Of a DNA stretch of 64,000 nucleotides, positions 1 through 63,513 are shown in pieces. The notes under the pieces are model-generated. The model was not told where the DNA came from. It made no database searches and saw nothing but the letters and a program-made list of their open reading frames with translations. The number at the start of each line of letters is the position of its first letter. The stretch's first letter is position 1. Origin of the DNA: Trichoplax sp. H2 (lineage: Eukaryota); NCBI GenBank assembly GCA_003344405.1, contig NOWV01000192.1, positions 1 through 64,000 on the forward strand. The letters run 5' to 3'. A program made the translations under genes and the position numbers.

Positions 1-1035
1 CCGTATCTATTTCATCATCTTAACTTTAGAATCTCTATTGATTTTTACATTGTCTTGTGTCAACAACTATTATAGATCGTTACACAAAAATTCGTTAACC
101 TCATTAAGTCCTGGAATGTTTCAAGGGTTACAAAATTTGCGTTACTTGTAAGCTACTATATATAGATAGATAGATACTAGCTAATTGAGAGTTCTTGGGC
201 AAGTCATTTTACATATATCTGTTAATCTTAATGTTGTCAATAACAATAATATTTTAGTTATTAGTTCTATATAAGATTTAATCCACTCATCTATGAGAAA
301 ACGTGTTTAGGCTTAATTATTACTAATTTAATAACCAACTACCTACGTCTAAACTACTTGTTAAAATAACGCTACGGATCTAAGTTATCCTTTATCAGCG
401 TTCAATCACTTTTCATAATAATACGCACAGTATATAGTTTTAATGTGATGCTTATCCTTCAATATGCAATATGGATTTAATTTAATTAATCGCTTAAGTC
501 ATCGAACAAATTAAAGTAAAGTGTATTGAAATTGTACTATATATAAAATATGGTATTGTATAAACATTATAAAGGTCTACCTTTATTTATTTAGGTATCT
601 ATACGAAAATAAAATAGAAAAGATTGCAGATGGAACTTTTACGCAACTGCCTATACTGTATCAAATGTAAATATTGAATTCTAGAAATCGCGGATATAAA
701 TTTAGACCGTATCTATTTCATCATCTTAACTTTAGAATCTCTATTGATTTTTACATTGTCTTGTGTCAACAACTATTATAGATCGTTACACAAAAATTCG
801 TTAACCTCATTAAGTCCTGGAATGTTTCAAGGGTTACAAAATTTGCGTTACTTGTAAGCTACTATATAGATAAATAGATACTAGCTAATTGAGAGTTCTT
901 GGGCAAGTCATTTTACATATAACTGTTAATCTTAATATCGTCAATAATTAATAGAAATGTTTATGAGAAAACGTGTTTTTAAGTTTAATCGTTTCTATTT
1001 TAATAACTAAGTACCTACATCTAAATTACTCATTA
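1..1035 (+). repeat. 706-bp-offset intragenic tandem duplication of an LRR exon-pair unit in gene 1
   Basis: 1-~160 is identical to 707-~866, including exons 76-147 and 782-853; similarity continues with more differences to ~355/~1035. Confidence 0.9.
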
Positions 1036-4000
1036 CAATTGCATTACTTGTAAGCTTCACGTGCGTATAAGAATAGAATTAGATAAGAAATGATCTTCAA
1101 ATCTATTAATTACTGAACATAACCAAAAATGAATTAGAAAATATTTGTGCTGTAATTACTGCCACCTGTGATATTTATATGGTCTTTTGAAAACTACCAA
1201 ATTAGTTAATAAGTCTAAGCTGCTGAATTTTAATTTCATGAATTTTAAAATATTAAAACTTTGATAAATAAATGTATCTCATTTTACAGATATAAACAGC
1301 TCGAGTGGATTGAATCTGTAGATAACTATTTTTGGGTGACTTATGAATTTTTATCTTTCATTCAGATACTTAGGCCAAAATAAGATAGAAAAGATAGCAG
1401 ACAGAACTTTCGCTAAACTCTACCATTTATACCACCTGTAAGTTATCATGTTATTTGATATTCAGTCTCAGTTATAAATTTGATGACTTTAAAGTAAATT
1501 GAAATCCCTTTGTAAATATATCTAGCGACTTGAAGTGCACATTTCAGAACAGATATTCGCTTTTTGATTTATGTTATCTAAATGATTAAAAATAATATTT
1601 CTATTCATATACTCGGGTAATATAGAAATTTAGAACAAAACTTGTTAACTGACTTAAATTCTCAGCAAATGTTCGATGGATTGTCATTTTTAAAGTATCT
1701 GTAAGTTAAATGCCTTAGGACTAGAAAATTTACCAATTAGAATCTAATCAAGCAGTCGATGTTAGCCTAGTTTATAAAATTTCATAATTTGTTTTTATTT
1801 TGACTTCTAAATAATATCAGCAACAATGCTGCTTTGATTTATATATTCTTTGCAATAAAATAATTGTGATAGGTTAGCGCGAGATAACAGAAGTAAAATT
1901 AACTCTATTCTTTCAGTTTGGTTTATTTGTCCAGGAACACTTTCATATCTACAGTTTAAAATATTGCTATTGCATTAAGGAGAAATATTAATGAAATTTA
2001 AGCACTTAATAAATGGCGATGCGATATATATTTACTAATCAAATGTTAATCTTATAATTTTAGTTACATGAGCGAAAATAAAATAAAAAGCATTAAAGAT
2101 GGACTTTTTTCAAGCTTTAAAGGGCTCAACTTACTGTACGTATAAAATAAAACGGCTTTAAATCATTTTAGTGATACAAAATTGCCAATATTTTAACTTG
2201 GAACTTATTCTCCATTTTCCTCTGATGATGTACGATACAGATGCTTGAAAGGAAATTTGATACAAACTTTCACGTCGCCAGGCGTATTTCAAGGATTGAC
2301 GAACTTGACAGATTTGTAAGTTATATTTAGATGTATGTCATCGACACAAAGCAGCTTGGCGACAAGATTTACGTAAAAACAATTTTAATTTCTAAAGTTT
2401 TCGGGATGCAGTATTGTCACAACCGAGATTGTAACACAAGAATTAAACGGGATTCTTTCCTCTAAAGTAGACTTAACTATCTAAGCAACTAACTCTAAGC
2501 ACTCTTTAATCAACCAAACTTAGATTCGAGTCTTAGACGATAGATTACTCACGTTAAGGATCAAAACTTTATTCTAGAAGCTATTTTATTAAAATGTCCG
2601 ATTGAACGCACAACTTACAATTACGACTAGCAACTGATAACCATCTGTCATCGACTAACGCAACTAACTCTCAATTAAGAACTTTGAGACTTTATATATC
2701 CTCACCAACCTCGTTGGTGCAAAAACAGTAATTAATTAATAACCCAGTCTACATACTTATTATAGCCAGAATCACAACACACTTTCTATGACATTTAATA
2801 TTAGTTAATTAGTAGCTAGGTGTCAACATATGATTCATCACACAACAAAATTATAATATTGATGATGCATTAATTAATGAATGTCACAAGTATCCTTTAA
2901 TTAATCACAAGAACTGAGACACCTTTACTTATGCGTTACAAAACTATAGAATTAATTTTATTCAATGACCTGTCGAAAGCTTAAATACCTTTTGGTAGTA
3001 GCTAACTTTGATGAATCGTCTCACAACAGTATTTATCGATAAGTACATTTAATGTCTGATTTTACCTAATCAGACAACAGTATATCCACTCTCGGAGTCT
3101 TTCAATACACCTATAATCTACCCTTAGTTAGAATTTCGATTAGAACAGCTTGTAATTTCTTCCAGTACTACATAAGAATTACATAATAATACAATATATA
3201 ATTTATTGTAACGCATTATAACTTCAGTAACTTTTACTGTGAGCAACTAATTGTAATCATCATATATGAATGTTATTAATTCAGTAAATTTAGTCATTTA
3301 ATTCTTCACGATAGTTTGTACAGCTACTGCCAATAAGTGTATATATTTGTTATATTAGTCGCACTCTATTTACATCTAAATGTTGATTTTTTTAAATGCA
3401 AAATGCATACTTATAAATATAAAAGTGATATTATTTGAAGAGAAGTGTTGTATGTTAAGGTGTAATATTCAGTGATTTTTAATGCTTGATAACAGATTCC
3501 GCTCAAATAAATGATAGCATTCAGCTAAACTTTCAATGTTTTTTTCGTAAGAAAAATGCGCTGACTTTCAAGAAATATAGAAAATCGTTATACCCACTAT
3601 GACATATTTTATTTCTAATCATATTCTGATCTGGTTAAAATCTAAAAAAGTTACAATTGAAATTTGTGTAGCAATATGACAGTGTTAAATACTGTATTAG
3701 AGTAGCAATATCTATGTTATGATAATTTTGTTAGCCTATCCTTATTTAGTTAACTTCTAATTTGGATATACTGTGTTTTAATATAGCACTGACTTTTTAT
3801 GACAGAGACACATATACACATACTGAAATTAATAGTTATAATAGGGAATGCAAATCGTCTACTTACAGTTCGAATCATTGTGATTGTAACTTACTTATGG
3901 TAGATTGTAAATTATCATGAAAATGTTTCGTGATAGGACATATCGTAATCTGACTATTTTGTATTAGTCATTACGTGTCTATGCTCGTAAATACTGTTGT

Positions 4001-7000
4001 CTGCATTAACGGAGCAGAAGCTAAAATTATAATCTAATTCAGTAAATGATTCCAATGTTAATTGTATTAACTATGACTCCCGAACTATTGAGGAATAGTA
4101 TATAAATGCAGTATATCGTGTGATAAAGAGGATTCTTAAACTTAGTATTTAACGTAAAATACGAGGCGTTTAAGTCTTTATGTAGTCTGCTAGTATAACA
4201 AAAGTGTTTCTGATAGTGCAGATATCGTTCCTTGATACGTGGTTCAAGGAAATGACTTATTGATCGTACACTGCATTATCTTGTTGCAAAGCTGTTTTGT
4301 GACAAGGAATAAACGTCTTATTGATATTTTCGTTATTTTAATGGATCAACTCATTATCTTCTTTTGTCGATTGATGGCGAATATTTTTAGAGAAGTCATA
4401 CGTAACTATTATCGACGCTGCAATGTAGAAGATAGTTAGAGCAAACTATATTCTTCTGATTATCTTATAGGAGACTGGACGGAAATAGAATATCGCTTAT
4501 TGCTGATGGAGTACTGGCACCACTTGGCAATTTAGAGTTTCTGTAAGTTGCTGTAAATCTTGATAAGTTTCTCATGTGGCTATTTTACTGCAATTAATTA
4601 TAATAGCTGCTCCTGAGAGTAATATTCCTTTAATAATAATATAATAAATTGAAGGTTGACTAAAGATCGATTTACTAACAAACTTTTACATGATTTAGCG
4701 CAATTTAAAAATCATATTCCTAATCTTTGTGATCTTATTTGTGACTGATAACGGTAGCAAATTCGGATTTCTGTTTGTGTAAACTAATCTTAATTGATTA
4801 ATTTACTTCGTAATAGCTGAGTAATTTTATTAAGTCCAATAAACCACGAGTATCCATCTTTAATCGCAAAATTTTCCATCAATAATTACGTTATTAAAGT
4901 ATTGTTTTCGCACCATTACGCAAGAGAAGTAAAATTTAAAGTTCATAGTAAAGCAATACTAAATATCGTACTTTACTTTAGCAAGCACTTTTAGAAATAT
5001 CTTTCTAAAGCAGAGAGTAAATTAAGGTCTATGTCTTTATACATACCTAATTTTGCATAATTGCTCTAACTTACTTAAACACTTAGAAATAAATGATAAA
5101 ATAAGCTAATTCATGATAGCTACTTAGAATAGCTTAATGTTTCTATTCGATATGGTAAAGTCCATACTTTTAATACTAAATATGATATTTATTGCTCCAA
5201 AATTACAAGTACTTTATAAGATAGCCAGTTTTATCTACATCAATATGGTATAGATTGCTATCATGTATGAGAAGTAATAAATGATTGTATTTTTATTCAA
5301 GTAACTGAGCAAGATTACGATTTTGATTAAATTAAAGATTACGTTATGAGTAACAGTACAAAAGTGTTCACTAATAAAACTGATTTCATAGGAACAATGC
5401 AGTCGAAGACATATTCTTAAGTTACGGATAATAAATTAACCAAAGTTATTTGTAAGATAGTTGTTATACAAATAAAGGCAATTTGAGTTATAAAAAGTTA
5501 TAATCAAATTTCTGTTTTGCGGTTCTTAGTTGTGGAAGTGAACGTGACCGTATGCGAAGTCGGTCATTTTGCAAACTGCCCTTGTAATTCAGATAATTTG
5601 TGACACATACACACTAATAACATACCTTGTAATTCAGAAGTTATTATAACTTATATATGAGGCCATTAAATACACATCATGAGATTCATGTTAGGAATAA
5701 ATCATCCGTTCTACCTAATATTATTTCATTGATCTATTTGCTATCTGGTAATATTTCTATAAAATTTTACGCCATCTTCACGTATAAATCAGGAAATATA
5801 CAATGAAAACGCTTATATTAGATGCAAAATTATCATAACTAATACTGATAGCAAAGGTACATTTCTAAACTTTGTTAGATTACCGCAATAGATAATTATG
5901 AACAGCGATTCTATAAGAAAGTGAAGATGGCTCTACGAACAATTTTATAGCCTTAAATATCAGAACTTAATTGTATAGCTGCTGATTAGTGTTTATTACT
6001 TTATAATATGAGTTGAACTGAACATTTTCTTGTAACGGAACTGATCAAATTTTAGCAATTTAGCAAACAATGGAATACAAGACTTGCGTTCTATGAGCTT
6101 TAGAGGTTTAACTAATTTGACTAATCTGTAAGTAATTAATGAAAATAACCTAGAGTACCTAAGACTTCTTATTTGTCATGTTTCAACTAACTATAGCATA
6201 CTGGCATCGATTATTGCTAATCAATTAAACTTATTAGAAATATTATACGGAACAAGATTACTGAAGTACCTCCCGGAATATTTAGAGATATGCCGAGACT
6301 AACAAAGCTGTTAGGATTCTATTGCTCACTGATTCTATATCGTAATATTAAGACTTATAATTTAAAATATCACTTCTGTACTACCAGTAAATCTGTAGAA
6401 TCTTCGTAAATACTTTCAATTATTTAATTATTTAGAATTTTTAAGAAAGTTTTTAAACGCTGAAGGATAAGATATTAAATGTATCTTTTCATATATTCTG
6501 TTAGATGGATGAACACAAATTTGATTAACAAAATTAGCCAAGAATCATGGGAAGGCATAAATCAACTAAAGTCGATGTAAGACATAATATTCTATAAATG
6601 AGGACCAGAAAAGAATAAGTTTTTACAAAATTTAATCTATTATGTTGTATGTTAAAGTGCATTAGGAGTACTACGATTATATAACACACAATGCGCGAGA
6701 AATTGACTATGATAAGGACTGACCATATTTGATCTTTGAGAAAGTTTTAAACTAGCTATCAAAAAATTGATGGTACCTGTGATTGAGGGTTCGATATCTC
6801 AGAGGATTGAGATTTAGTCGCCATTTACAATTATTACAACAAAGGGTTTATAAAAGTTATGCTTTATTGTAGGTTAGTAATGTGAAGTACAGTGAGGTAG
6901 TTACGGTAGATCAGCGTGCAGGCTGTCGTGAGTAACGAGTAGAAGTATTAGACTGTGAGAGACTAACTAGATGACTAACTGAGAGGCTAATGAACTCTGA

Positions 7001-10000
7001 GGTAGAAATCGCCGGTATTTATAGTTTTAAAGATAGAGCACATGCAGAGAATAGGATTGTGGAAATAGGTACAACGTATACCATAACAGGTTACAAAATA
7101 GCAGATAATTGTAGAAAACAGCGAGTACCGTAATAACTAAATACGGTAGTCTATATATGAATGTAGAGTAAGCGGACTGTAGATCTGTCTAAATATAAGA
7201 GCAATACAACATGTCTATATTTAAGAGTAGAATATAGTTACAGTATATTCTAAATACACTACAGTACCATTGCGAAGTTGACGTAATTTACAAGTCTTAC
7301 TGTTTAGATAACTTTTAAGATCGTCAAAAGCATATTCATGAGGATTAGTAGTTACTGAAAGCCGTTATTCGCTGACCTTACATGATAAAGTTATAGATAT
7401 ATACTATAATACTTAGATTATGCCCTTTTCATATTAATTCTATATGGTGCGCTTGTTACTGAGATATTGCCGATTTATCCATAGAGATCTCGCTATCAAT
7501 GCAATTGAAGAATTTGGTAGATCCGACTTTTCTTCGCTTACTCATTTGGAAGATTTGTTAGTAGTTGACATATCTGTATAAATATACCACCAAAAGCAGA
7601 CTATTTAATAATGTTAGTATAAAGTAGCGTAGTATTGTGATTGCAGACTATTAGCCATGCTAAGTATGAGTTACGGTAGTGTCGTTTCTATATTTATCTT
7701 ATGACGTATTTAGTAGCCCACAATTATAGACTGTAATAATAGACTCTATAATGGAGTATAGACGACTATATACAGTAAGATGTTGAGCTAGTAATAAGGT
7801 TAGAGATCAAGATAGAATTGTAAATCAGATAATAGGATATAGTTAGTTCATTGCAGTTTGAGTGGTAAGAGCAATGTCTACGCAAATACTGTAATCGTTC
7901 GCATATTGGATTAATGATGGTTCGCTATAAAATGTTGATACTAATAGTAACCTGAATATGTGTAAAATAAGGTAAAATGTTGCTATGCTGATTATAGCTG
8001 GGAAGGCTACGGGGATTATAAAAGCAAGCGAAATTAGATTTTTTGATTGCTATTTCTAGAAGTCTTTCAGTAGTAGTATTCGTCTAGAGTAGAGCTGTGC
8101 AGCTAATCTTTGTATTAGATCTAATAAAGTTCTAGTTTTCTACAAATTTTGAATTTTCGTGATTGGATTTTATGACAGCTAGTTAATTTTATAAACTCAT
8201 GATAACAATTATATACGATATCTACAGTAAATGAAGTCTTTCGGAGCCGTAACGAAAAAAATGCATTACGTTATAGGAGATTGAGCGTTAACTATTTGGT
8301 TGTCTTGGAAGATTATATATTTTCAAATCTGTCTAATCTCCAAATTCTGTACGTTAATTGTATTTATTTTCCGTCGTATATCTAGTTATGATAGTAAATA
8401 GTCGCCTATAGGACTTGTGGACTTGCTCTTGTTTGAAAGCTGTTTCCTTGTAACAAAATTTTTTCGAATTTTAGCGGGATACATGGCAATAGATTAGCTA
8501 TTATTAAATCTCAATCATTTTATGGACTCTGGAAATTAAAAACTCTGTATGTTACAATCATTTAATTTACTTACCCATAAGTAATTGTTAAGTAATTGTC
8601 ACTTACTTCAGATATATTTTGAAGTAAATATTTTTCAATCAATAATTTGATTCCCTGTTGAATTAGACTCATTTATAATAACGAAATCGAAGTAATCGAA
8701 CCTGGGTCTTTTTCCAATCTTACGGAACTTTCAACCATGTAAGTCTTTTCATTTAGACGAACTATCTAAAACTGTAATTGCATAGCAATGGTCTATTAGT
8801 TCTCAAAATAAAAGAATCCATTACTTAACATTAAAATAAGCTGTGTTAATCAAGGTAGTTAATATCATCAATGTTCTAATAAATATTTAAACAATCAATG
8901 ATATTAAGGAATTCATAACAGATAGTGGTTTGTTAACTGATATAAATATATTCTGTTTGTAGTTATTTTAATAATCAGAAATGTAATTTTAATATTATAA
9001 CAGTCACTAGAACATAATTACCAACCGTTCAGCTGCTATGAAGCTTTGTGTATTTTCATTTTACTAAAGGTTTTCCAAGCTATTTTTTGTGTTATTTTCC
9101 GCTGAAAATGTTATTATATCAATTGAAATCTCATTTTCTAGTATAAAAGGGTTGATTCTATTAAATAAAATTCAGTTGTGTTATTCACTTTTATAGCAGT
9201 TGCTCAGGCTGTATTAACGTGTAGTTAAGTTATAGTTATACACATTGAAGAAAACTTGTCTGTAAGATTAAGTTATATTATTTTAGTCACTACCATATAA
9301 TTGCAGAGCAGACATTAGAAAGACAATTTCACAGTGATTAATAGCTAGCAACAATTTCTTATCTAGTCGAGAGTATCATTTGATAAAGACTATGCTATCT
9401 TTGATACGCTCATGATTGGTTATTCCTGAACAGTATTTCCAAGTAAAAAACTTGCCATTTTCCCGTATGTCTTATTATTCAATTTGATGATAGCAAACTT
9501 CAAGCAGAAATAATTTATGTCAATTGAGTTATGAGTTCAGTTGAAGTAGCTAATGAAATATATTATGCACATAGATCAGAAGTTGTCCATAGGATAAATG
9601 GTAAAATAGCATTGATTATATCAATAGAGAAGCAATTATTGGGAGAGAGATTCTCCTTAATATCTTATTACGAAGTAGATTTACTGGATCATCAAAAGAA
9701 AAGCATACCTATTTTATATTAACTCCATGTATCGCAAACTTAGTACTGGCATTTATTGAAATCAATATTATTTATGTCAGTGATCAATTTTATATTACTT
9801 AAATTTTTACTTTGCTCACTTACACAATCCTTAGCCTAGTGCGTATTATAAAATTTTTTTATTTTTGTCTTCAATTAACAATAATATTTTTAATAAATTG
9901 TATACTTCAAGACGGTCTAACAGCTCCTATTATCTTTTAGTAATCTATCTTGGAACAAACTCGTATCTATCAGCAATAATATGTTTAGCAATATACCTTC

Positions 10001-13000
10001 ATTGACAGAATTGTAAGTAAAATTTGATTTTACATGGAGGAATTGGATTCTTATACTTTTGGATATGAATAGCTATTTATAACTGGAAGACTTAAAGATA
10101 AATTGTAATTCCTTTATTTTAGGTTGATCTTAAATAACTTTGTGATCAATATCAGCTCCAAAGCTTTCCGAAAATCAGCAAACATTCGCAAATTGTACGT
10201 CAAGTGATATATAATATTATGAAAGATATAATTAAATACTCATATAGTATTAACATTCAAATTGGAAGAGATTTGTCAGGAAATGGACTAAAAGTAATTT
10301 CAGAACAAACTTTCTCTGATTTAGTTAATATAAGAATCTTGTAAGTTAAGATTTTTCCGAATATGATTACATAACACTTGGCCTTGACTAATGCATTCTT
10401 TGCCTTACTCATATGGAATCATTTATAAATCTCCTTCATACTTAGAGAACTCAGAGTATGTTCCTTTACTGACATTGGTATATATTTGTTCTCTAATAGC
10501 ACTTTTCTTGAATATTTGTGAGTCTTTCTTGATATTTATGTACTCGTAATTGATTTCATTGATCAATATTCTATCAAAGAAAATTTAATGGACGTAAATC
10601 AATTATATTCATTTAATTAGAGATCTTGGAGGATGCAACATTAAAACTATTGCTTCTACAGCTTTTAGGAACTCCGTTTCGTTAAAAATAATGTAATATG
10701 ATTTACGACATTACATATCGCAATTATACTTATCAATTAGAGTAGTCGCTTCATACTGTTGGTCTATTCAAACTATATTCTACAAAATGATATCATATGC
10801 TTACCCATGAAAATTTAGCTTCTTTGCATTTGAAGAAATAGTCATTTTTTACATAATTGATACCCTACTTTTAATATTTCTAATTATTCGCTCTAGAACA
10901 TTCTAGAATTTAGTCAAGATACTTTACAGCGATGTGTATAGCATGAAGCAATTTGACACCGTTAAGAATTTAATTTCCTTAAACTATAGAAATTTATCAT
11001 CTACATCATTACGAAAATTACCATCCTATATATTTGGATCTAATAACAAGACAATCCTGAAAGAGTTGTAAGCATATGAAATAAGGCGTAAAGCTTAAAC
11101 AATTTTATATGAAATCACGAATTAACGAATAAATATAAACAAAATGACTACGAATTAATGTATAGAATTCTAATGTAATATCAATTGTACAAATTATGCA
11201 TCATAATTGCTAGCAAATTAATTAAATGGTAATGCATAGCAAGGCATGCCCATTTTTAACAAAATATTATTGTATATGACAGATTATGCTATTAAATCTT
11301 AAATATTCTCGACCAGGTACCTAAATAACAGCTTAATAGAAAGTATTGACGCAAAGTCATTTTATGGATTAAATCACTTGGAACTGCTGTAAGATTTTAA
11401 TTTTTATATTTATCTATTTTAGAACTAATTGTTACATAATTCAATCCTGAAATTTCAATTTAAAGAACTTGAATATTCCGATAGTTCATTTTTTGACATA
11501 ACGAAGCAAAGCAAATAGTTTCAAAAATTAAATTTTTCTACCACACCAGTCTCTAATGGATGGCCAAATAAATTAAATGCTCTTTTTCTTACTTAATATA
11601 TAAAATAGTAGAAGCTAGCCTACTTGTAGGTAGCGTGGTATGAACTCTGATTCAGTATTTACTCAACGTTGCAGATAAAATTTTTGAACAGTTAATAGTG
11701 CATTAAGTATCAATTGCATATGAAGTAGAGAGAAGAGTTTGTTTGCAAATCGGATGGCAAGAGTGTAATGTATTTAGTAATTAACATAGGTTACTATTAA
11801 GATTGATATTGAGCGTCACTTCCGATTTCTTTTATCGTTAATATCAACTGTTATTCTATTAGCCAGTTGTGACAGTGTTATATACTGTATTCGAGTAGAA
11901 ATATCTATGTTATGATAATTCTGTTAGCCTATCCTTATTTAGTTAACTTCTAATTTGGATATACTGTGTTTTAATGTAACACTGACTTTTTATGACAGTG
12001 ACACATATACACATACTGAAATTAATAGTTATAATAGGGAATGCAAATCATCTACTTACAGTTCGAATCATTGTGATTGTAACTTACTTATAGTAGATTG
12101 TAAATTATCATGGAAATGTTTCGTGATAGGACATATCGTAATCTGACTATTCTGTATTAGTCACTAGATGTCTATGTTCGTAAATACTGTTGTCTGCATT
12201 AAGGGAACAGTATCTATAATTAATATCTAATTCAGTAAATGATTTTAAAGTTAATCGTACTAAGTATAACTCATGAACTATTGAGGAATAGTATATAAAT
12301 TCAGTATATCGTACAATAAATTGGATTCTCAAATTTAGTATTTAACGTAAGATACTAGACGTTTAAGTCTTTGTATAGTCTGCTAGTAGAGCAAAAGTGA
12401 TTCTGATAATGCAGATATCGTTCCTTGATACGTGGTTCAAGGAATTGACTTATTGATCGTATATTACGTTATCTTGTTGCAAAGCTGTTTTGTGACGCAA
12501 GTATTTCTAAATTATTACTTATAATAGCAATAATTTGTTTGTAATACTTTGGAAACGCTGCAAACAATTATTTGAAACACCTCGAAATGAAGATTGCAGC
12601 TTAAATATACCTACAAAAGTATACTACTGCAAGTAATCCTAGTTTCTTTTCTAAAAGGACGACCTATAAGAGTTATCAATTTCTTATTGGACACCGTACT
12701 GTAATCTGCCTTAGTTCTCATCTACTTAAGATTAACTATTAAAAGGTGTCCATAATTGGTCACTAGTTGCTTTCTCCTAATGAAATAAAGAAGCCTTAAA
12801 CCCTAATAGAGGTTTCTTTACAGTTTTATTATTTGTAGCAAGCCTCGATTTGCAACAAATATAAATGAAACTTTATATATTAAATCAGCTACTATAATTA
12901 ATTCGTTAATTGAATGCAGATTATAAATATCATTTATGCTTTTAGGACATTAAGTACAAATAATATTCAGCATTTACCAGCGGACACTTTTCAATTTCTT

Positions 13001-52600: not shown

Positions 52601-55600
52601 CTTATACGCATGCAGCTTACTATTGATTACAATGTTTTACAGCGAACCATCATTAATCCAACATGGAAATGATCACAGTATTTTCGTAGAAGTTATTCCT
52701 ACCACTCAAATTACAATAAAATGCGCATATTCTTATATATAATTTACAATTCTATTTCTACCTCTAACCTTATTAATAGCTCAACATCTTACTGTGTATA
52801 GAATCATCTGTACTCTAGCATATTACAGTCTACAATTATGGGCTACTAAATAAATATCATGAGATAAATATAGAAAGACACCAGCGTACATCACACTAAA
52901 CATGGAACAGTCTACAATCACAGTACTAGTTGCTTTACAGTAATAATAACGTAGAAGTAAGCTGTGCTGATAAAAATTACATAAAATTACCAATATTTAA
53001 GTAAATATCACAATAATCGATGACATTAACGAACTCATAGATAGCAGTTTTGTCAATTGATAAAATTATTTTCTGTTTGTAGACACTTTAAGAATCAAAG
53101 ACATTTATGAAGTATCGTAATAGCTACCACAATAAAAAAATCAACAGCTTAATTACTATGAAGCTTAGTATATTTTATTATTATTAGAGGTTTACAAAAT
53201 TATGGTTCATGCTAATTTCTGTAAAGAAAATTAATTGATCCTTCTATTAATTAAGGCAAATCTTTATATACTAGTGTAAGGGTTGGTTTTGTTAAATAAA
53301 AGCAAATGCGCTACACAAACTATCTTAGCTTTGATAAACTCATTGCTAATGATTCTTTAACGCTATTTATTCATAAAGATTTTTTTCATTTGTGCTGCAT
53401 ATGTTGCAATTCATTATGATGACAGCAAACTAAAGGCGTAAAATTTGTTAATACATTAATTTACGAATCAAGTTAAAATGCCTATAGTTTGGCTAATTAT
53501 ATGAGTTGATAAAAAGTGATCTGCAGGATATAAGGCAGAGAAGTAGCGGCACCAATTATATCAATACAGTGTCAATTACTAGAATAGCTGTTCTACTAAA
53601 TATCAAGTTCCGAAAAACATTTGCTGAATCAGCGTACGACAAGAAAAGCTGTATTTGATTTGCTCTTTGTTTCGTAGCTTTGTTCATGACATTTATTGCA
53701 ATCACTAGTATCTACGTTAGTGATCAATTTTATATTACTTGTACCTTACTTTGCTTACTTGCACTATTTTTATCACTATATCATAGAATTGTTTCTTATT
53801 TTTGTCAATATCTAAGAATAATTTTCAATTGATTGCATACTTAAAAACAGTCAGAAAATTCTTATTTCCTTTCAGTAATTTATCATGGAACAGGCTCACA
53901 TCGATCAGTAATCATATATTTAGCAATCTACCTTTATTGACAGAATTGTAAGTCAAATTTGAGTTTATATAGAGAATTCGATTCCTTATAATATCGGATT
54001 TGAGTAAATATTCATAAATGAAAGATTTTAAAGATAAGTTGTAATTCCTTCATTTTAGATTGCTGTTAAATAACTTTGTGAAAAATATTAGCTCGAAAGC
54101 TTTCCAAGAATCATCAAGAATTCGCAAATTGTACGTTAAGTGATATATTAAAAATGTGAAAGATGCGATTAAACGCTCTTATACGCTCCTTACATTCAAA
54201 TTGGCAGAGATTTATCAGGAAATGGAATTGACGTAATTTCGGAACAAACTTTCTCTGATTTGGTCGATATAAGAATCTTGTAAGTTAAAACCTATGTAAT
54301 TATTATCAAATATGATATGGTATTGACTATGTATTCTTTACTTTACTTCGTTAAAATCATTCATAAATCTCGCCTATAATCAGGGAACTCAGAGTATGTT
54401 CCTTTACTGAAATTGGCATTGATTTATTCTCTAAGAATAGTTTCCTTCAACGTTTGTAAGTCATTAATGATGTTAATGTAAATTAAGGTATAAATTTTAT
54501 TTCCACGTACATTTAAGCTAGCAAAGAAAAATCTAATGGACATAAATCAATTGTATTCATTATATTAGAGACCTTGGCGGATGCAATATTAAAACTATTG
54601 CTTCTACAGCTTTTAGGAACTCCAGTTCTTTAGAAATAATGTAAAATGATTTGCGTCATTATATCTTACAATTATCATTAATTAATTAAATGATGTAGTT
54701 AGCTCGTACCATGGGACTACCAAAACTTTATACAGTAAATTGATATAATATGAATAAAATTGAAAATCTCTCACCTCAAAATTGAAGAAATACTGTACTG
54801 AACTTTTGTTTTTTATGCATTATAATTGATACCTTACGTCAGTTGTTGCTTAATTCTATGTTCTCAAATATTTCAAAATTCAGTTAAGATGCTATTCAGC
54901 TAAGTGTATTTGATGGTACTTTTAGACTTCGTTAAAAATTGATTTTCTTTAAACTACAGAAATTTATCTTCTACATTATTACGAAAACTGCCACCCTATA
55001 TATTTGGATCTGATAAAAAGATAATACTGAGAGAGATGTAAGTATATGAAATAAAGAGTGAAGCTTAAATGATTTTGTACAAAATTACTAATTAATACTT
55101 TAATTTAAACGATGTAACCATGAATTGATTCGAGTAAAATAAATTGTGATACACCGTAAAATGATTACAACAATATTTTTAACAAATATTGTTGTATTTA
55201 GCCTATTTTGCACTATTAAAATCTTAAATGTCTTTGGTTAGGTATCTAAATAACAGCTTAATAGAAAGTATTGACGAAAAGTCATTTTATGGATTAAATC
55301 ATTTGGAACTGTTGTAAGATATTAATTGTAATCTTGCCTTATTTTAAAGTGAGTTTTTCCATTTATAGACTTAAATTTTGTTACTATTCACTTTACGATA
55401 GATTTACAAAAGTAAAAGTTTTATAAATTAAATCTTACTACGACCCTTATCTTCCATAAATGACCCAATCAGTTAAACACTCTTTACCTCACGTATTATA
55501 TAACAATAGCACAGTAGAAGCTAGTGTTATTGTAGTCAACCACTTGTTTAACGTATTGTAAGCCAGGTAGTATGATATGAACTTCGATTTTGTACCAGTA

Positions 55601-58600
55601 TTTACACGAAATTGGCAATATTTTTATACTGTTAATAGGGCATTACGTATCATGAGTATAGAGTGAGGATGCGGTCATCTAATATAAATAGAAATATTGT
55701 TGATCTGACAGCAAATTTGACAGTTCCTTTACTTGTCGAATCACGAATGTATCACAAGTTTGGTAATTAACATACTGTATACTGTAGGCCACTATTAAGA
55801 CCAACGTCGAAAGCCACTTTAGGGCTCTTTTATCGATAAAACAATAACTATTCTATCAGTTATCATTTCTAAGTTATTACTTATACTAACAGTAATCAGC
55901 TTCATCTTATACTATCTTTGCAAAAAGTACCTTACTATGAATAATCTTAGTTTTACTTTCTAAAAGATGCAACCTTTTGAGCAGATTTTACATACTGTCT
56001 GACTTGACTATTCTGAATCAAGATTAAATCATCTTTTTACCTTTTACAGATAGTAAAAATTCATAATAAATATAATATAAATACGATGTTGTGTATTAAA
56101 TTTGCTACTATAATTAGGCTAATATGATTTAGAAGTAACGCCATAATTAAATATAAATTACTAATCATATTTTTAGGACGTTAAGTACAAACAATATTCA
56201 AAATTTATCAAGTACTTTTCAGTTTCTGACTGGATTGATTGAATTGTATGTATTATATATATATATACATCTATATTTAAAATCATGTTCCGTAATATCT
56301 TAAATTATGTCATACACAAATGTTTATATGGCTATAATGAATACTTGTATATATTTGTGACGATAGATACGATCTTAAAATATACTGATCAAATCAAATA
56401 AAATCTTGTTATTGATGTTAATAGATGTCACCGCATTTGTCTTTTAGGAATCTGAACGAAAATAAAATTAAGCATTTGGATGGTTATAGATTTAATGGGT
56501 TAAAAGCACTTAAGCGCCTGTAAGTTATATCTTTCATAATAAAACGTAGCCCTAAAGACGTTTTTGCTAGGATTTATGCCTCTTATCAATTATCATTATT
56601 ATATTATAATAATTATAAATGACTACCTAAAATACTCTAGCGATAGCGAATACGGTACAAAGTATAAAACTTACTAACCAATTACCGCCGAAAGTTGGCA
56701 GGCAATGAACTAGTATTAATGTTTCGAGCTAAGAATAGCCCTAACTAGCAATAATAGTTGAGAGTATTTTCTAACATATATTGCTGTTACTTGGAATACC
56801 AGTCAGTTGGTATACTTAGGCAAATAGGATTCAACATTGAGAAACCTATATACTTTCTAAAAAATCACAATCTAATTTATTAGCGGCAAAGCTGTCTCTT
56901 ATATTGGTTTCAGTACCCGAAAACGACGTAATTACACAAGTTACTTCGTCTATTTGAAATTAAACAAATCAATACTCTGAAGAGCCTCTATCTGTATAAA
57001 TTAAACACAGTCTAATCCGATTAAACTTACGGCATCAGTGCAGTATTAAGTTAATCAATTCTTAATAATAGTTAAATTAACAAACCTATATTTGGCTATC
57101 TTACTAATATAATTCCTCCAAACTTAGGAATTGTATTTTTTGACTTAATAACTTTGGAGGAGATAGATATAATCCAGTTAAAGTAGTTGGCAATTACTAG
57201 CTTAGTCTTTCAAATCCTAAATTTAGGATAACTAACATATCAACTGTTAATCACTAAAGTTGCAATAAGACTTAAGTGCCCGTCACGAAAATTACTTAAG
57301 TGACATTTATAATTATGATAATGCAGCAGCTTTTGTGATTATTATAGAATATTAAATAATATATAATTATTTTTTTATTAAGGGACTTTCTAGAAGTATT
57401 ATCAAGTTATTATTACTGGAAATGCTGATTAATTTTTCATTAAATAACAAAGGAAAATCTCGATAACATAGAAGAGATTCTTCTTATAAAAAGTAATTTG
57501 AGTAGCCAATTAGATAGGTGATGTCGAGCTTAGCTAAAATAGCTAATAATATAGTAGAATAGAATACGCGTTGATCCAAAAGTTGAGAGTACGATAAAAG
57601 GTAGAGTGATAACGATTACATCATTACAGAGATTAATATTTGATAAGTATTTCTACTATATAACAAGTTAGGAACTAGTTTTACTGGATCAATGAGGGTG
57701 AAAAATACCTGTTTTATATTATCTTCTTTGCCACAACCTTGAAAGTGACAAATACTTATTAACAGAAACATTTGATAATAATTAAAAAATTTTACGCAGA
57801 TTTTAAATATATTTTAGCAATGGTTATTTATGTACCCGTATTAATGAACACCTCGAAATTTGATTTTTTTTTCGTAATAATTTTAGGTACTTATCTTCAA
57901 ATGAAATAAAATACATCGATAATGAAGCATTTACAGGCCTAATAAAACTAGTAAACTTGTATGTTCTGCAAAGCCAATAATGATTCTTTATTGGCAATAA
58001 CTAGGCTAATAAGGACTTTTTTAATTACTTTCATTTCCAGAAATATCAATAATAACTATCTGACTTCACTTAACCGAACAACCTTCCATGGATTACGCAG
58101 ATTAAATAATTTGTAAGTTTAAAAGAAGGTGTTAACTGGACTGTTTTCATATTTTAGTTTTAAACAATACGATCAAAGGTTGATAAAGATTGAAGTGATG
58201 CTTGACCACATGAATACTTTAATAGCAAATAGTGACAATAATTAGTATCATAACATTTAGTTACCATAGTAATTTTGATGTTATTTGTACTGCAAAGTAA
58301 ATCTCTACTCACTAATCTATTCGATAGGCTTCTGGATGAAAATCAGTTAACAATAATTCAGAATTTTCAATTTTCTGAACTACAAGCTTTGCAAACATTG
58401 TTAGTTATTTATTTTCATCTCTATAAGTCAGAAATATTACAGGATTATTAAATAAAAGCTGCTATAACTTGATTGAAATTAGATCTTTAAGATCAAATAA
58501 AATAGAAGTTGTCCAATCTGAAGCTTTTGAAGGTCTAGACTATATTAAAGAAATGTAAGGAGCTAGATTAATCTAAATTAGTTATTAAAATAACAAAAGA

Positions 58601-61600
58601 GAAATTTATTCGCCAAACAACTAAATCTAAAAGTGAAGTTTAATCCATAATATATACTTAAAATAATCTCAAACTTACAATAAACTAATATTTATGCTTT
58701 TATTTGTAATCACTGCTTCGTGTAACAATTTATAGTTGGCTGGATGGTAATCCCCTGTATCATTTATTAGATTTACCTATGAGCAGCTTCGAAAATCTTA
58801 ATTATTTGTAAGATATAAGAATTTTATTTTTATAATCTAGCATGACTTAAATTTAGGGTCTCAAAAGTAACGTTCTATATTATTTCATACTATAAAATGA
58901 TTGAATTCTCTATGTAATAAGCATTAACCCATTCATAATTTAAAACTCCTTAGAGGTTTATCCAAGACCAAAATGAGTAAAATTGATATGGCTTGTACAA
59001 ATACTAACAATTACAAAGTCAGCAGAATGTAAGTTATGTTATCTTTCATTTTCGAGCGAGAAATATTTATGAAACGATTTTACTTATTCCATTTTCGGTT
59101 ATAATTAGCCTTTATCAGACTAAAAACATTACTCTTGCAAATTATTACAATCAATTACATTGTAATGTAACTTAGTATTGTGATTGTAGACTGTTAGCCA
59201 TGTTTAGTATAATGTACGGTAGCGTAACTTCTATATTTATCCTAAGAGATATTTGGTAGCTATAACTATAGACTGTAGTGGTATAGACTCTATGCTAGAG
59301 TATAGATGACTATATACAGCAAGGTGTTGAGTTACTAATAAGATTATAGGTAAAAATAGAACTGTAAATCATATATTAGGATATGTTTAATTCATTGTAC
59401 TTTGGCTAGTGTGAATAATGTCTACGTAAGTACTGTAGTCGTATCCATATCGGATTAATGATGGTCCGCAGTAGAATAGTGCTACTAAGAATAATTTAAG
59501 TATGTTTAAAATAAGGTAAAAAGTTGCCATGCGGATTGTAGCTGCGAATGCTACGAAAAGTATAAAAGGATGCGACTTAGATTATTCTGTTAGTTCGTTC
59601 TAGAAGTCTTTAATAGTAGTATTCGGCAGCAGTAATAAACGGTTGTTCGCAAAGCAATACATTAAAAGAAAATTCGCAGCTTGATTATCAAGCTCTATTG
59701 CTTTCTTGGCCTAAATTGACTGTTTTATTTGTGATTTTTTGCTTAGGGATTTCTCAAACAACCTAATGCGCGAAATTAAAATTTCTGGATGTTTTAATTG
59801 CTTACAGCATATGTAATTTAAGAATTAATTAATATCAGCAATCATATCGTACTAGCTATCGAAAATAGATTATCAATTTTAATAAATTTTTTCTCTCACG
59901 TTAACCTAGTTGCTGTGATACCGAATGTTACCATTCAACGTCATTAGCTCACAGCGCTTGACCTGATTAATATTAGTTACATATTTGCTTTAATTTTTCA
60001 GCAATATCTCCAGCAACAGGTTCACTACTGATAAAAGCCTATCTTTTCGTAACCTTTCCTGTATTTCATTAATGTAAGTAAATTCTTTACCTCCGATTTT
60101 AATGATTGTATATTCATTCGTGTCATGAATTGGTTAGTTGCTTCATTGTTTTCTTCTAGTTGATGTTGTAATATATTTTATTTAGATATAATGACAAACA
60201 TATCAGTTTAATAGCTTTACTTGCCAAATTATTTAGATCAGACAATATCTTTTCTTGATCAAACATTATAAAGCGAGAGTCTATTTAGTTTATGTAATAA
60301 CGTGACTTCTAAAATATAAAACAAGGACTACAGTTTCATGCAAACTTCAGTTTATCACATAAAATATATTCGTCTCACTACTACTAAGGACTATCTAACT
60401 GCAATCAGACTATCTTCGTGCTTTCTAAATTATCATAGCAATATTCATGATATATATATAAAATTGTTACTCAATGATTTTCCTTCAAGCCCAATCACAT
60501 CTTACCCATTAAGTTACAAGTTCATATCTAAATTTACTATCGCACTATCAATTCATAATTTGCGCTTCTGATTAAAACTCCACAATACAAATCTCATAGT
60601 ACTACAATAATTAGTGCAATCTATTACTATCTCAGAATCTTAATATAAGCATCTCGATACAATTACTACAATACATCCTGTAAAAATCTTCCCCAATTAG
60701 ACACTTAAGGAATCTTTCAACAGAGTGTACAATTTATCTATTTCGCATTATTCCATAATCTTAGACTTAAGCTTATTTGGTGTTTCACTACAGCTTATTA
60801 ATAGAATATTAGAAACATAACTTACGCAAACTTTAACTTTATTCTAACATTACGTAAATATCATTTTAGAGATATTAGCAAAAACAGAATTCCTAAGCTG
60901 TCTTCCGATTTTTTCTCCACTTTACAAGATCCTACAGCACTTTTTGTACTGTATGTATACTTTTTAGTGTATATTAAAAATTTATATATATTTTAATCAG
61001 CATACTGTATTTTGATGAAAGTGTTCGTTATTTTCTTTCATCACTTTCTGTAACTACGCCTTAAAATTTAGAAATATATCTCGCAATCGGCTGGAGTATA
61101 TCCGATCTGATATTTTTTATCCAATAACCGATTTGAAACAGCTGTAAGGGTTTATATTTTATAAATTAATTTGTTTAAGGTCCTAAGGATTACTTATAGC
61201 TTAATTCTTAGCAACATAACCAGAACGATGCTATACAGCACTGTATACCATATTTGAGAGCCATTACTGTTCTACAACTTTTAAGAGGCCTAATTATATA
61301 ATTCTTTAATCACTAGCCTTAGATGGTCATTATTAATCATTGTTAATCGATTTGCTCTTTAATACACATTTCGCTCCAAACTTAAATTTGACATCAACGT
61401 AGTACTCGTAAATCATGCAAATGAGCTAAGTTACAAAATACCATTGACTAAAGAAAGATTAGAAAAATATTGTCATCTTGCTTGTTTGTAAGCAGAAATA
61501 TACAAGATAATCGCCTTGATAAATTGGATTTTATTCAACCTCTGTGTAAACTAAATACACTGTAAGTATATTGTCTACTATAAAGTTGAAATAAGAAAAA

Positions 61601-63420
61601 GAATAGATTTATTCATACACTTACAAACAGATATAGCTTAGTCAATAAGTTCTAAGTTAATTTCTATTCTATGCATGATATACGTAATAGAATTAACGAA
61701 TTTTTATCATAAACTCCTTCATGTCTTTGGCATGCGCTGTGTATTCAGTGTTGAGAACAATGCTAGCTTCTCCATTTATTTGCTGCTATATGTTATATAT
61801 TCTCTGTCCATAAAATTTTACTAGTTCAGCCTCCAAAAATCGGATATCTTCTTTGAAGAGTAGATATTTTCAAAATTTAACAAATCTGCTGAATCTGTAA
61901 GGAAATTAGCTAAAGAATCCATCTTATAAATAAATAAATGGAAGTCAACTTTAGATATCAGTAATTTACTTAAGCATTAGTTAGAAGTCATAATGCTAAA
62001 TTTTTAATTAATATGGCAATGAATTTGATCAAAATTCTATGAAAACATTGTTAGAGATTTTAGCTTTAACGAAATAGTATCTCTTAAAAATGGAATATTT
62101 GAAGGATGCAAAAGTATTGTGAATATGTAAGTCTAAATAATAATATACTTTAGACAATTAGATTTTCAAAAAAATCAATGCTACGTATCATAGAGAACAT
62201 ATAGTAGCATTTACTGTCAAGGTTCTTATTTTTAAAAACTAATAATTCTAAATTTAGGAACCTGAATCATAACAAAATTTCAACCATAGAAAATGAAACG
62301 TTTCGCGGTTTATCAAATTTATATTCGCTGTATGCTGTTGAATCCTTCTGTGCGATAATTATTTATCGCAGTATAAGATTAATAATACGAAAACAGTATA
62401 GGTTATTTGCGTTGAAATAATTATGTTCTGTTACGCTGATTTTAATCTATTAGAGACATCAGCTATAATCGCATGATTTCTTTAAAAGGAATATTTCTTC
62501 AAGATTTAAATCAGCTAAATTCATTGTAAGTAATCGACTCTTTATGTCTTATAATATTATTCATTTCTTTTTCGCTGCAGGGTCTGTTCAGTCTTATGAA
62601 ATTATCACTTCTTATAAGTTACTGCATACACTCATTAATAGTAAATAGTAATTTTTAAAATAACTAGCAGAATGACGTATTCTGAAAAAGGGTGTCCAGC
62701 TTAACAGTAGCAAGCTATATCGTTTCTAATTCTATAATTGACAGAAAATGCGATGGTAATCTAATCTCTTCCTTGGCAGGATCACCGTTTTATAATCTAA
62801 CTAAACTGACTCAATTGTAAGATTACGAGTAACTATAATCTATATTGAATGATTTGACGAATTGTAATCCATGATAGAAAACACATAATTGCAGATAAAA
62901 ATATACTAAGAGGCAATTTCATCACCCTTAAATTATTAATTTTCTATTAGATCTCTGGACTATAATCAAATCATAGATATTGCTAACGATAGTTTCACGA
63001 ATTTGAATATTTTAAGCGAATTGTAAGTTGATGGAACATTTCAAATTTACTTCATTTCATATAGCAGAGTAGTAAAATTAATGTCAAGGAAGTCATTTGT
63101 AATTTACTTATTTCTCAGATCGATTAATAACAATAAACTTTCTGGCTTGTCCTGCAGTTCAATTTACAAAACTATTCAAGATTTGTACGTGATAATGAAA
63201 TAAAAATACATAGTCATACATCAGTCTATTCTATGAAAATTTTTGGTCTTATTTTAATTAATTATTTGAATAATAATTCAAGTACTATTGCTGAGTAACA
63301 ATATGTAACGTAAAATTTGAAATTAAATTTGATTATATCGTTTAGGAAGATAAATCATAACAACATATCTTACATCTCGCCTAGTTGTAATGAAACATTT
63401 GCCAGTTTAAAGAATAGCTT
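31546..63420 (+). CDS. Gene 2: tandem paralogue of gene 1, giant LRR receptor (LGR-like), 3'-truncated by the window; signal peptide + LRRNT + 53 LRR exons (~1,340 aa visible)
   Basis: Exons: 31546-31609 (signal peptide), 34650-34764 (LRRNT), then LRR exons 34961-35032, 35680-35751, 35930-36004, 36365-36436, 36743-36817, 37143-37214, 37406-37480, 38585-38656, 38776-38847, 40229-40300, 41545-41619, 41929-42000, 42187-42261, 43572-43643, 43830-43904, 44839-44910, 45016-45090, 46665-46736, 50038-50109, 50223-50294, 50491-50562, 50987-51058, 51208-51279, 51408-51479, 51584-51655, 53876-53947, 54059-54130, 54208-54279, 54384-54455, 54569-54640, 54960-55037, 55242-55313, 56177-56245, 56448-56519, 57887-57958, 58041-58112, 58328-58399, 58483-58554, 58736-58807, 58954-59028, 59747-59812, 60002-60073, 60870-60950, 61072-61143, 61496-61561, 61825-61896, 62055-62126, 62258-62329, 62454-62525, 62745-62816, 62951-63022, 63119-63184, 63346-63420. 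Exons 44839..63420 match gene 1 exons 2064..20415 one-to-one (38 pairs). The 7TM is inferred, not seen. Confidence 0.9.
33120..33700 (-). mobile_element. Degenerate non-LTR retrotransposon (CR1/L2-like) reverse-transcriptase remnant in gene 2 intron 1
   Basis: Minus-strand motifs in the expected order and spacing: IFVLIDFGKK (~33637-33666, cf. DFSKAFD), SFQQGLI (~33425-33445, cf. GVPQGS), INQVVS*YYIFSDD (IFSDD at 33354-33368, cf. INDL..LFADD). Stops and frameshifts are present. Confidence 0.6.
33825..34090. repeat. Diverged two-copy direct repeat (~130 bp unit)
   Basis: gccttatttaggttaggaaatagttcatgatttagaccatttatttctt (~33895-33943) vs gcattatttagcttaggtgatggttcataatttagatgattttttctt (~34023-34070). 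Confidence 0.55.
34650..34764 (+). CDS. LRR N-terminal cysteine cap (LRRNT) exon of gene 2
   Basis: tag|ct acceptor; encodes (A)LQCPQSCQCTNGSTMKCQNPLMSTFPALMADMVNITYL (CPxxCxC..C motif); ends tt|gtacgt in phase 2. Confidence 0.9.
40318..41380. mobile_element. Family H element (E inserted at its right terminus)
   Basis: tgtcacgaaag start, ..ttgtaacc end, TSD gtaat (40313-17)/gtaat (41381-85); reverse-complement homologue at 56720-57305. Confidence 0.75.
40942..41376 (-). mobile_element. Family E, inserted at the terminus of a family H element
   Basis: tgtcacaacc..ccgtgact ends, TSD aaccg/gaccg. Confidence 0.8.
41800..44050 (+). repeat. Intragenic duplication of an LRR exon pair with flanking introns in gene 2 (~41800-42400 vs ~43440-44050)
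   Basis: Exons 41929/43572 and 42187/43830 and their introns align with each other and with the single gene 1 copy at ~1230-1840. Confidence 0.85.
44104..44665 (-). mobile_element. Family B (reverse)
   Basis: Ends ..gttacattaca, TSD tgcaa/tacaa; highly similar to the reverse complement of 59161-59625. Confidence 0.8.
45208..45737 (-). mobile_element. Family A (reverse, internally deleted)
   Basis: tgtcacaaaacagc..ctgtaaga ends, TSD gttat/gctat. Confidence 0.8.
47212..48060 (-). mobile_element. Family I (reverse), right boundary not resolved
   Basis: 47818-47970 aligns to the reverse complement of 57570-57722; interrupted by E at 47244-47812. Confidence 0.6.
47244..47812 (-). mobile_element. 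Family E, nested ~30 bp inside a family I element
   Basis: tgtcacaaacc..ccgtgaca ends, perfect TSD atata/atata. Confidence 0.85.
48925..49559 (-). mobile_element. Solo-LTR-like element, family A (reverse)
   Basis: tatcacaaaa..ctgtaaca ends, TSD ggcag/agcag; source of ORF 49276..49467, which mirrors ORF 11955..12146. Confidence 0.87.
51747..52945 (+). mobile_element. Family A copy with a family B element inserted in its terminal bases
   Basis: tgttacaatg start; A sequence to 52388, B at 52389-52939, residual gtaat+a, then TSD ttaac/ataac; empty site in gene 1 (~8830). Confidence 0.78.
52389..52939 (-). mobile_element. Family B (reverse), nested at the 3' terminus of a family A copy
   Basis: tgtgataaaatcc..ctttaca ends; reverse complement aligns to 7618-8177; degenerate TSD gtcac/gtaat. 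Confidence 0.8.
56636..57750 (+). mobile_element. Family I element hosting family H
   Basis: tctagcg..aagtgaca ends, perfect TSD aatac/aatac; absent from the gene 1 intron 13283-13501. Confidence 0.75.
56720..57305. mobile_element. Family H (opposite orientation to 40318), nested in family I
   Basis: tgtttcgagc..aagtgaca ends; e.g. 57121-57178 is the reverse complement of 40491-40545 with few mismatches. Confidence 0.75.
59161..59630 (+). mobile_element. Family B, 3'-truncated
   Basis: tgtaatgtaacttagtattgtg start; similarity to family B stops near 59630 before the AATAAA/terminal part. Confidence 0.8.
60293..60792. mobile_element. Solo-LTR-like element, family D
   Basis: tgtaataa..cactaca ends, TSD gttta/gctta; empty site in gene 1 (~17250). 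Confidence 0.82.
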
Positions 63421-63513
63421 GTAAGTGGAATTTCGTTTTAAAAGTTAACACCATACTACAGTACTAGCAAAAAAACATCATTTGCTAACTACTCTTTACC
63501 ATTGCTATTTTAC

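Follow-up and report, generated by a model that had tools for sequence, protein, structure and literature searches.

Tandem Trichoplax genes predicted to encode LRR-containing G protein-coupled receptors with about 60 repeats

Introduction

[quoted passage not shown] Forty-one are described there as placozoan-specific, with a hinge of their own and LRRs in "an unusually high number", for instance 34 in Tadh-LGR-15; section 5 of that paper gives 7–18 LRRs for classical LGRs, about 7–9 in types A and C and about 14–18 in type B. In the relevant part of Roch and Sherwood (2014; PMC4079206) the highest number is 26 LRRs, in a sponge LGR. Here we analyse two neighbouring genes in a 64,000-nucleotide stretch of Trichoplax sp. 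H2 DNA (assembly GCA_003344405.1, contig NOWV01000192.1, positions 1 to 64,000 of the forward strand; the window). Each of them probably encodes one polypeptide in which a leader and an LRRNT cap precede some 60 LRRs in uninterrupted series, followed by a short four-cysteine hinge, a 7TM domain and a Ser/Thr/Asn-rich tail, for which we infer a receptor mechanism.

Several described systems resemble these genes in part. Vertebrate glycoprotein hormone receptors are encoded with one LRR per exon and phase-2 introns, as are the window genes, and the segment preceding their first transmembrane helix (TM1) has a counterpart here; they differ in having only 9 LRRs and in their long hinge, which contains a sulfated-tyrosine loop, whereas the hinge in the window comprises about 40 residues. 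Type C LGRs (RXFP1/2 and invertebrate GRL101) include the best solved match to the 7TM domain and hinge, but combine an LDLa module with about 9–10 LRRs instead of the LRRNT-like start of gene 2 and about 60 LRRs. Long mosaic LGR-like receptors of 2000–3300 aa from a mollusc, echinoderms, a hemichordate and Nematostella are comparable in length and have a related 7TM domain (about 30% identity), but owe this length to modules of the LDLa, CUB, F5/8-C, Kringle, C-type lectin and EGF types and have few LRR matches (three of three scanned). Toll-like receptors have about 20–26 LRRs and Drosophila chaoptin about 41; by description, such long LRR ectodomains share the roughly 24-residue N-x-L repeats and probably the LRRNT cap, while Toll-like receptors use a TIR transducer rather than a 7TM domain and the array described here is two to three times longer. 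The placozoan-specific LGRs are closest, with an LRR-only ectodomain, their own Cys-rich hinge and a rhodopsin-type 7TM domain, although the 34 LRRs given for Tadh-LGR-15 compare with at least 52 in gene 1, whose 5' end lies outside the window, and about 62 extrapolated for gene 2.

An original prediction, made from the letters of the window alone, had presented the locus as an undescribed receptor system. This part of it cannot be maintained in view of the 41 placozoan-specific LGRs with many LRRs already reported in PMC9545775. A literature search for these two loci returned nothing beyond that paper, and nothing naming the gene models TRIADDRAFT_33357 or TRIADDRAFT_33361. Relative to the sections of PMC9545775 considered here, four points are new: a repeat number of about 60, the complete exon structure, its support by RNA and the finding that the reference model is wrong. 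The two loci may themselves be among the 46.

Results and Discussion

Exon Structure of the Two Genes

The window DNA is AT-rich (28–31% GC) and contains a single long open reading frame (ORF) at 24933–26702 (+), in agreement with the original prediction that the ORF track shows the 7TM exon only. A repeating unit, consisting of a 72-nt exon flanked by AG and GT, is already seen in the first 3 kb. Each LRR exon opens with base 3 of a codon and closes with the first two bases of the next, so that all introns are in phase 2, and the codon split by the intron mostly encodes the conserved Leu or Ile of the following repeat. Scanning the window for AG-(66–81 nt)-GT units open in phase 2 and carrying an LRR motif (N-x-L core) gave 78 rows on the + strand, some of them overlapping alternatives of one exon, against 1 on the − strand as strand control. 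The exon list was curated by combining an exon hidden Markov model (HMM), a relaxed score and matching between the two paralogues. Four divergent exons overlooked by the exon HMM (15683–15757, 20602–20688, 22003–22125 and 22277–22351) were all later confirmed by RNA. The resulting features are as follows.

Gene 1 LRR array, 76..24449, + strand: 52 single-LRR exons, phase-2 introns, 5' end beyond the window
Gene 1 LRR exons 1–15: 76-147, 595-666, 782-853, 1366-1437, 1626-1700, 2064-2135, 2241-2315, 4471-4542, 6056-6127, 6238-6309, 6505-6576, 7485-7556, 8277-8348, 8475-8546, 8667-8738
Gene 1 LRR exons 16–26: 9941-10012, 10123-10194, 10269-10340, 10446-10517, 10621-10692, 10990-11067, 11317-11388, 12946-13017, 13211-13282, 13502-13573, 14062-14133
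Gene 1 LRR exons 27–43: 15024-15095, 15183-15254, 15461-15532, 15683-15757, 16702-16767, 16952-17023, 17342-17422, 17546-17617, 17972-18037, 18246-18317, 18484-18555, 19248-19319, 19453-19524, 19751-19822, 19947-20018, 20115-20180, 20341-20415
Gene 1 LRR exons 44–52: 20602-20688, 20822-20893, 22003-22125, 22277-22351, 23502-23579, 23772-23843, 23939-24016, 24124-24195, 24378-24449
Gene 1 terminal exon, 24947..26702, + strand: end of the last LRR, Cys-rich hinge, rhodopsin-type 7TM domain, tail of about 250 aa, stop
Probable gene 1 3' untranslated region, 26703..27497, + strand: end inferred from 748 letters of RNA contig past 26749 (X1 record 8, see below) and AATAAA at 27471
Gene 2 LRRNT exon, 34618..34764, + strand: end of a hydrophobic leader and LRRNT-like cysteine cap
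Gene 2 LRR array, 34961..63420, + strand: 53 single-LRR exons, cut by the window end
Gene 2 LRR exons 1–18: 34961-35032, 35680-35751, 35930-36004, 36365-36436, 36743-36817, 37143-37214, 37406-37480, 38585-38656, 38776-38847, 40229-40300, 41545-41619, 41929-42000, 42187-42261, 43572-43643, 43830-43904, 44839-44910, 45016-45090, 46665-46736
Gene 2 LRR exons 19–36: 50038-50109, 50223-50294, 50491-50562, 50987-51058, 51208-51279, 51408-51479, 51584-51655, 53876-53947, 54059-54130, 54208-54279, 54384-54455, 54569-54640, 54960-55037, 55242-55313, 56177-56245, 56448-56519, 57887-57958, 58041-58112
Gene 2 LRR exons 37–53: 58328-58399, 58483-58554, 58736-58807, 58954-59028, 59747-59812, 60002-60073, 60870-60950, 61072-61143, 61496-61561, 61825-61896, 62055-62126, 62258-62329, 62454-62525, 62745-62816, 62951-63022, 63119-63184, 63346-63420

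The counts of 52 and 53 LRR exons, as well as the first and last coordinates 76 and 63420, match those originally predicted. Over both genes, AG stands at each of the 106 acceptors and GT at each of the 106 donors, and every border is in phase 2, with 76 of the 105 LRR exons measuring 72 nt and another 14 measuring 75 nt. The spliced frames stay open for 1862 aa up to the stop in gene 1 and for 1327 aa in gene 2, which is not a chance outcome at the stop frequency of 0.08 per codon found in window DNA. Further conserved exons were sought in the long introns, where only matches to repeat elements were obtained.

The acceptor AG of the gene 1 terminal exon lies at 24945–24946, again in phase 2. 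As gene 1 exons 2–3 match gene 2 exons 9–10, gene 1 is probably as long as gene 2. For gene 2, the window end cuts the array at the exon matching gene 1 exon 43, after which gene 1 continues with 9 further LRR exons (20602–24449) and the 7TM exon. Adding these 9 exons, as the original prediction had done, extrapolates gene 2 to a total of about 62 LRR exons and a product of about 2,160 aa, with a predicted 7TM exon beyond the window.

At the other end of gene 2, the first recognisable exon is 34618–34764, whose LRRNT match reaches a Pfam E-value of 1.4e-4 and 21.8 bits, under the curated cut-off of 25.8. Read upstream, the frame of this exon meets a stop before any ATG, and therefore a short start-codon exon must sit in the 7.9-kb intergenic spacer 26703–34617. 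We weighed 25 ATG-to-donor candidates upstream of the LRRNT exon, none of which was convincing, and the spacer contains no recognisable ORF of at least 70 aa. Accordingly limited to ORFs of this size, no LDLa module was found in the spacer either; the gene 2 array opens with the LRRNT exon, and a small upstream exon is possible.

RNA and Independent DNA Support

Four sequencing runs, none of them on record as RNA, were compared with the window, whereby the RNA comparison covered gene 1 from about position 7000 onward. Spliced contigs were found in two of the four, X1 and X19, which stem from different studies; X5 behaves as DNA, and the pieces listed for X18 are all short and unspliced. Among the 15 of 47 joints listed, 12 GT..AG joints in X1 and X19 coincide exactly with predicted exon borders, including the following.

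RNA joints in gene 1: 14133>15024, 15095>15183, 15254>15461, 15532>15683, 15757>16702, 16767>16952, 20415>20602, 20688>20822, 20893>22003, 22125>22277, 22351>23502

The most informative contig is X1 record 8 with a length of 4481 nt, of which letters 1931–3733 lie on 24947–26749 and 748 letters follow. Exons 27–52 sum to 1950 nt; subtracting the 20 nt absent at the contig start ("side 52", joint 15095>15183) leaves 1930, which matches the 1930 letters preceding 24947, so that one RNA contig holds 26 LRR exons (27–52) together with the 7TM exon. The remaining joints of exons 27–52 are taken from this length arithmetic. With the 748 letters placed by inference, AATAAA at 27471 is compatible with a gene 1 transcript end near 27497.

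Position 10001 and the joint 14133>15024 both fall on a second X1 contig, whose depth is 11.5. In five bins over 9418–11418 and 12753–14086, mean X1 depth was 1.65, 4.94, 2.58, 2.47 and 1.67, corresponding to 11.5 times the exonic fraction, where the fit of the first bin needs the addition of the unspliced X1 record 5 (depth 3). The depth arithmetic fits a spliced contig across exons 16–27, which shares about 30 nt (15044–15073) with X1 record 8. RNA thus directly ties at least 26 LRR exons, and by inference most likely 37, to the 7TM exon. The predicted single transcript from the start of the array to the 7TM exon is supported for this part of gene 1, while no RNA support was seen for exons 1–15.

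We also observed unspliced X1 pieces at 7271–7702 (exon 12 with both flanking introns) and at 9185–9509 (the intron before exon 16) with depths of 3–5.5, which may represent pre-mRNA, intron retention or DNA carry-over.

DNA-like contigs of X5 are colinear with the window at 8116–8982, 9443–10669, 12468–14034, 14892–15665, 19107–21013, 21534–22386, 23856–24890 and 25326–26749, and colinearity over these eight long stretches makes misassembly less likely.

Receptor Class

The terminal exon matches Pfam 7tm_1 with an E-value of 2e-25, confirming that gene 1 ends in a rhodopsin-type 7TM domain. When the 7TM domain and hinge were compared with solved structures, RXFP1 ranked first (8e-35), followed by TSHR, LHCGR and FSHR (1e-24 to 1e-26) and LGR4 (5e-12). 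Among distinct PDB sequences, the first 18 consist entirely of RXFP1, TSHR, LHCGR, FSHR, LGR4 and the unnamed family-1 GPCR chain 8w1z_A, with other class A GPCRs ranking below. The translation of 24933–26702 shows D/E-R-Y where TM3 ends and N-P-x-x-Y within TM7, and both align to RXFP1.

Four cysteines fall within the first 35 residues of the terminal exon. The hinge ends in the pattern C-x-P...C-E-[DN]-I-[LM], which was aligned to TSHR 328–350 and RXFP1 382–405, and its last segment aligns with the TSHR stretch immediately before TM1. In TSHR this segment is the tethered agonist.

LRR ectodomain and 7TM domain occur in one polypeptide, as seen from the RNA contig with 26 LRR exons and the frame open over 52 exons, while the at least 52 and at least 53 LRR exons lie outside the 7–18 LRRs of the classical types. 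Judged by their predicted products, both genes are LGRs, yet fit none of the classical types A, B and C. The hinge type, the many LRRs and nearest relatives that are placozoan only would instead assign both to the placozoan-specific LGR clade.

Database Relatives and Public Gene Models

The closest database protein is TRIADDRAFT_33357 of T. adhaerens, a partial model of 337 aa with 99% identity. Its first 23 residues correspond to gene 1 exon 1 or 3 (76–147 or 782–853) and are spliced straight to the 7TM exon about 24 kb downstream, so that the model skips about 50 exons. The expectation that automated annotation fragments this locus was hence correct. Apart from this model, the relatives from T. 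adhaerens and Trichoplax sp. H2 are likewise short or partial and bear the names "GRL101-like" or "Relaxin receptor 2", and all named matches of at least 35% identity are Trichoplax proteins.

A HMMER search over 1.84 billion representatives returned 308 proteins at an E-value of 1e-30 or better. Among the 150 of these 308 matches listed, the longest placozoan-type protein is the partial Trichoplax sp. H2 protein P0029 (1270 aa, 13 LRR_8 stretches), which is colinear with residues 340–1595 of the gene 1 product (32% over 1285 columns). P0009, likewise from Trichoplax sp. H2 (894 aa), is colinear with residues 902–1602 (62% over 703 columns). The hinge start Y-L-C-C-I-V-P is common to P0005, P0007, P0009, P0010 and P0022. 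A word-based search with the 7TM region among proteins of 1032–2945 aa returned no placozoan sequence and only three distant LDLa-LRR-7TM proteins with 26–29% identity.

TRIADDRAFT_33361, a partial model of 370 aa that is 71% identical in its 7TM part, was considered as gene 2 and rejected, since 67% is the best match that its LRR part reaches in the window. It lies on the same 553,957-nt scaffold, outside the window, so that the cluster has at least three members. P0005 and P0007 of Trichoplax sp. H2 were also found to share one contig.

Paralogue Comparison and Selection

The two genes are tandem and recently duplicated. In blastn, gene 1 (9–20470) is colinear with gene 2 (38486–63475) at 70–80% identity including introns, and 41 exon pairs correspond one-to-one with equal length. 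Together with the joining of LRR exons to the 7TM exon in RNA, these two colinear paralogues support the original prediction of giant LRR-GPCRs in tandem. In the N-terminal half of the array, 24- and 25-residue repeats alternate. Two-exon units are duplicated along with their introns, 1–367 versus 707–1039 in gene 1 (84%) and 41721–42402 versus 43368–44043 in gene 2 (73%); as each of these duplications is confined to one of the paralogues, the LRR number is still changing, which is the repeat turnover originally proposed.

The ratio of nonsynonymous to synonymous substitution rates (dN/dS) between the paralogues is 0.26 overall, compared with 1.04 and 1.31 in the wrong frames, and it amounts to 0.28 for exons 2–15, 0.28 for exons 16–26 and 0.21 for exons 27–43. 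The comparison shows purifying selection, albeit for one pair only and with low power. Substitution was furthermore resolved by repeat position, using 32 pairs of 72-nt exons and 23 repeat positions. Scaffold positions of the repeat are almost invariant, while variable positions have proportions of nonsynonymous differences (pN) of 0.2–0.3 against about 0.4 for synonymous ones (pS). Only at position 13 does pN exceed pS (0.204 versus 0.076), and with 32 codons this is too noisy to call positive selection. The inferred concave-face positions (22, 23, 1, 3 and 4) are not more variable than the convex ones.

These data bear on the question whether the receptors are pattern-recognition or allorecognition sensors, which would recognise foreign or non-self molecules through their LRRs and signal through G proteins, rather than hormone receptors. 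The large lineage-specific family with its 41 members (according to the considered sections of PMC9545775), the clustering in tandem and the turnover of repeat units are all in line with such a role. Moreover, the part of Kamm et al. (2019; PMC6321704) considered here finds no true Toll-like receptors in placozoans and proposes other GPCRs, namely lectin-bearing adhesion GPCRs, as recognition receptors; LGRs are not discussed in that part. The purifying selection within the single pair, the unremarkable concave face and the one-to-one exon pairs of equal length argue in the opposite direction, and as there is no sign of diversifying selection, the role is unsupported at present and we consider it rather unlikely. 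A more specific and, in our estimate, unlikely version would make the giant LGRs the surface pattern-recognition system of an animal without Toll-like receptors, in which a two-turn spring of about 60 LRRs captures large microbial, algal or conspecific surface molecules and reports via G proteins and an expanded arrestin set. If true, placozoans would possess an immune or food-sensing pathway of the LRR-to-GPCR type without counterpart in Bilateria.

It appears extremely unlikely that these long arrays are pseudogenes in decay or that they arose artificially when repeated LRR exons were assembled. Gene 1 exons 1 and 3 do encode an identical peptide within flanks that are 84% alike, a spot where assemblies can err. 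However, the other exons differ from one another, independent DNA contigs are colinear with the window, gene 1 is expressed and spliced, and the overall dN/dS is joined by a complete lack of stops in 1862 and 1327 codons.

Length of the Receptor and Proposed Mechanism

A mature receptor could also be shorter than proposed, if the upstream LRR exons (gene 1 exons 1–15 or more) belonged to a separate LRR-only transcript or to rare isoforms and the real LGR had about 37 LRRs or fewer. The visible RNA support from exon 16 on, and family models that reach only 34–36 LRRs in databases and in the considered sections of the literature, would agree with this. Yet there is no stop, cap or membrane anchor between exons 15 and 16, where phase and frame remain constant, and dN/dS is alike upstream (0.28) and downstream (0.21–0.28). 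In gene 2 the LRRNT-like cap stands at the very start of the array, 53 exons before the window end, and the short database models are marked partial or visibly mis-joined, which leaves a shorter receptor quite unlikely.

Several points weigh against a full-length array of about 60 LRRs in one receptor and against the mechanism proposed below. The 7TM exon and start codon of gene 2 and the 5' end of gene 1 are all unseen, and the LRRNT match of gene 2 stays under the Pfam threshold. The X1 contigs listed around exon 12 (records 2 and 3) are unspliced; gene 1 exons 1–15 and all of gene 2 have no visible RNA support, with exons 1–15 resting on sequence, frame and dN/dS. The two spliced contigs meet in the overlap of about 30 nt only, and contigs cannot prove a single molecule. 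Finally, ligand binding, coupling and the tethered-agonist mechanism are drawn by analogy from relatives at about 30% identity.

With these points considered, we favour for both genes a receptor in which a leader and LRRNT cap would be followed by about 60 LRRs, one per 72-nt exon, the four-cysteine hinge, the rhodopsin-type 7TM domain and a long Ser/Thr/Asn-rich tail. Going by the curvature of known 24-residue LRR solenoids, 60 repeats would probably form more than one superhelical turn. The long concave face of the solenoid may bind a large ligand, probably proteinaceous, and binding would be relayed to the 7TM domain via the hinge, in which the final segment corresponds in alignment to the tethered agonist of the TSH receptor. 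The 7TM domain might then couple to G proteins and arrestins, as it does in RXFP and in the receptors for glycoprotein hormones. Two-exon units (24+25 residues) are likely to have been duplicated as the array grew, and the genes to have multiplied by tandem duplication.

Intronic Repeats

Interspersed repeats have inserted into introns of both genes, which explains the long ones.

Interspersed repeat of about 620 nt, both orientations, 76–89% between copies in blastn: 3679-4301, 11867-12494, 15929-16547, 45207-45684, 48930-49560, 51777-52388 (also 31874-32078)
Second intronic repeat family, length about 560 nt, copies about 78% alike: 7614-8178, 14263-14474, 44116-44663, 52388-52943, 59163-59625
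Further repeat pairs: 18621-19098 / 63513-63987 (83%); 22821-23280 / 60329-60792 (82%)

In all four runs, the depth at the repeat of about 620 nt ranges from hundreds to tens of thousands and is very high in the bins of 11419–12752, identifying it as a high-copy element. Terminal inverted repeats were sought at its ends with no clear result.

Implications

Placozoans have no neurons, yet possess 46 LGRs compared with eight in humans, the 41 lineage-specific ones being orphan receptors. Correct full-length structures are a prerequisite for cloning, expressing and deorphanising these receptors, for which the public models of this locus, one of them a 337-aa fragment omitting about 50 exons, are unusable. 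Among early-branching animals, gene counts and statistics on domains are skewed against genes with many small exons, and those of this genome probably under-report them. An uninterrupted array of about 60 LRRs on a 7TM domain would rank among the longest LRR ectodomains of any receptor, and it raises the structural question of how binding on a probably two-turn solenoid is transmitted to a hinge of about 40 residues.

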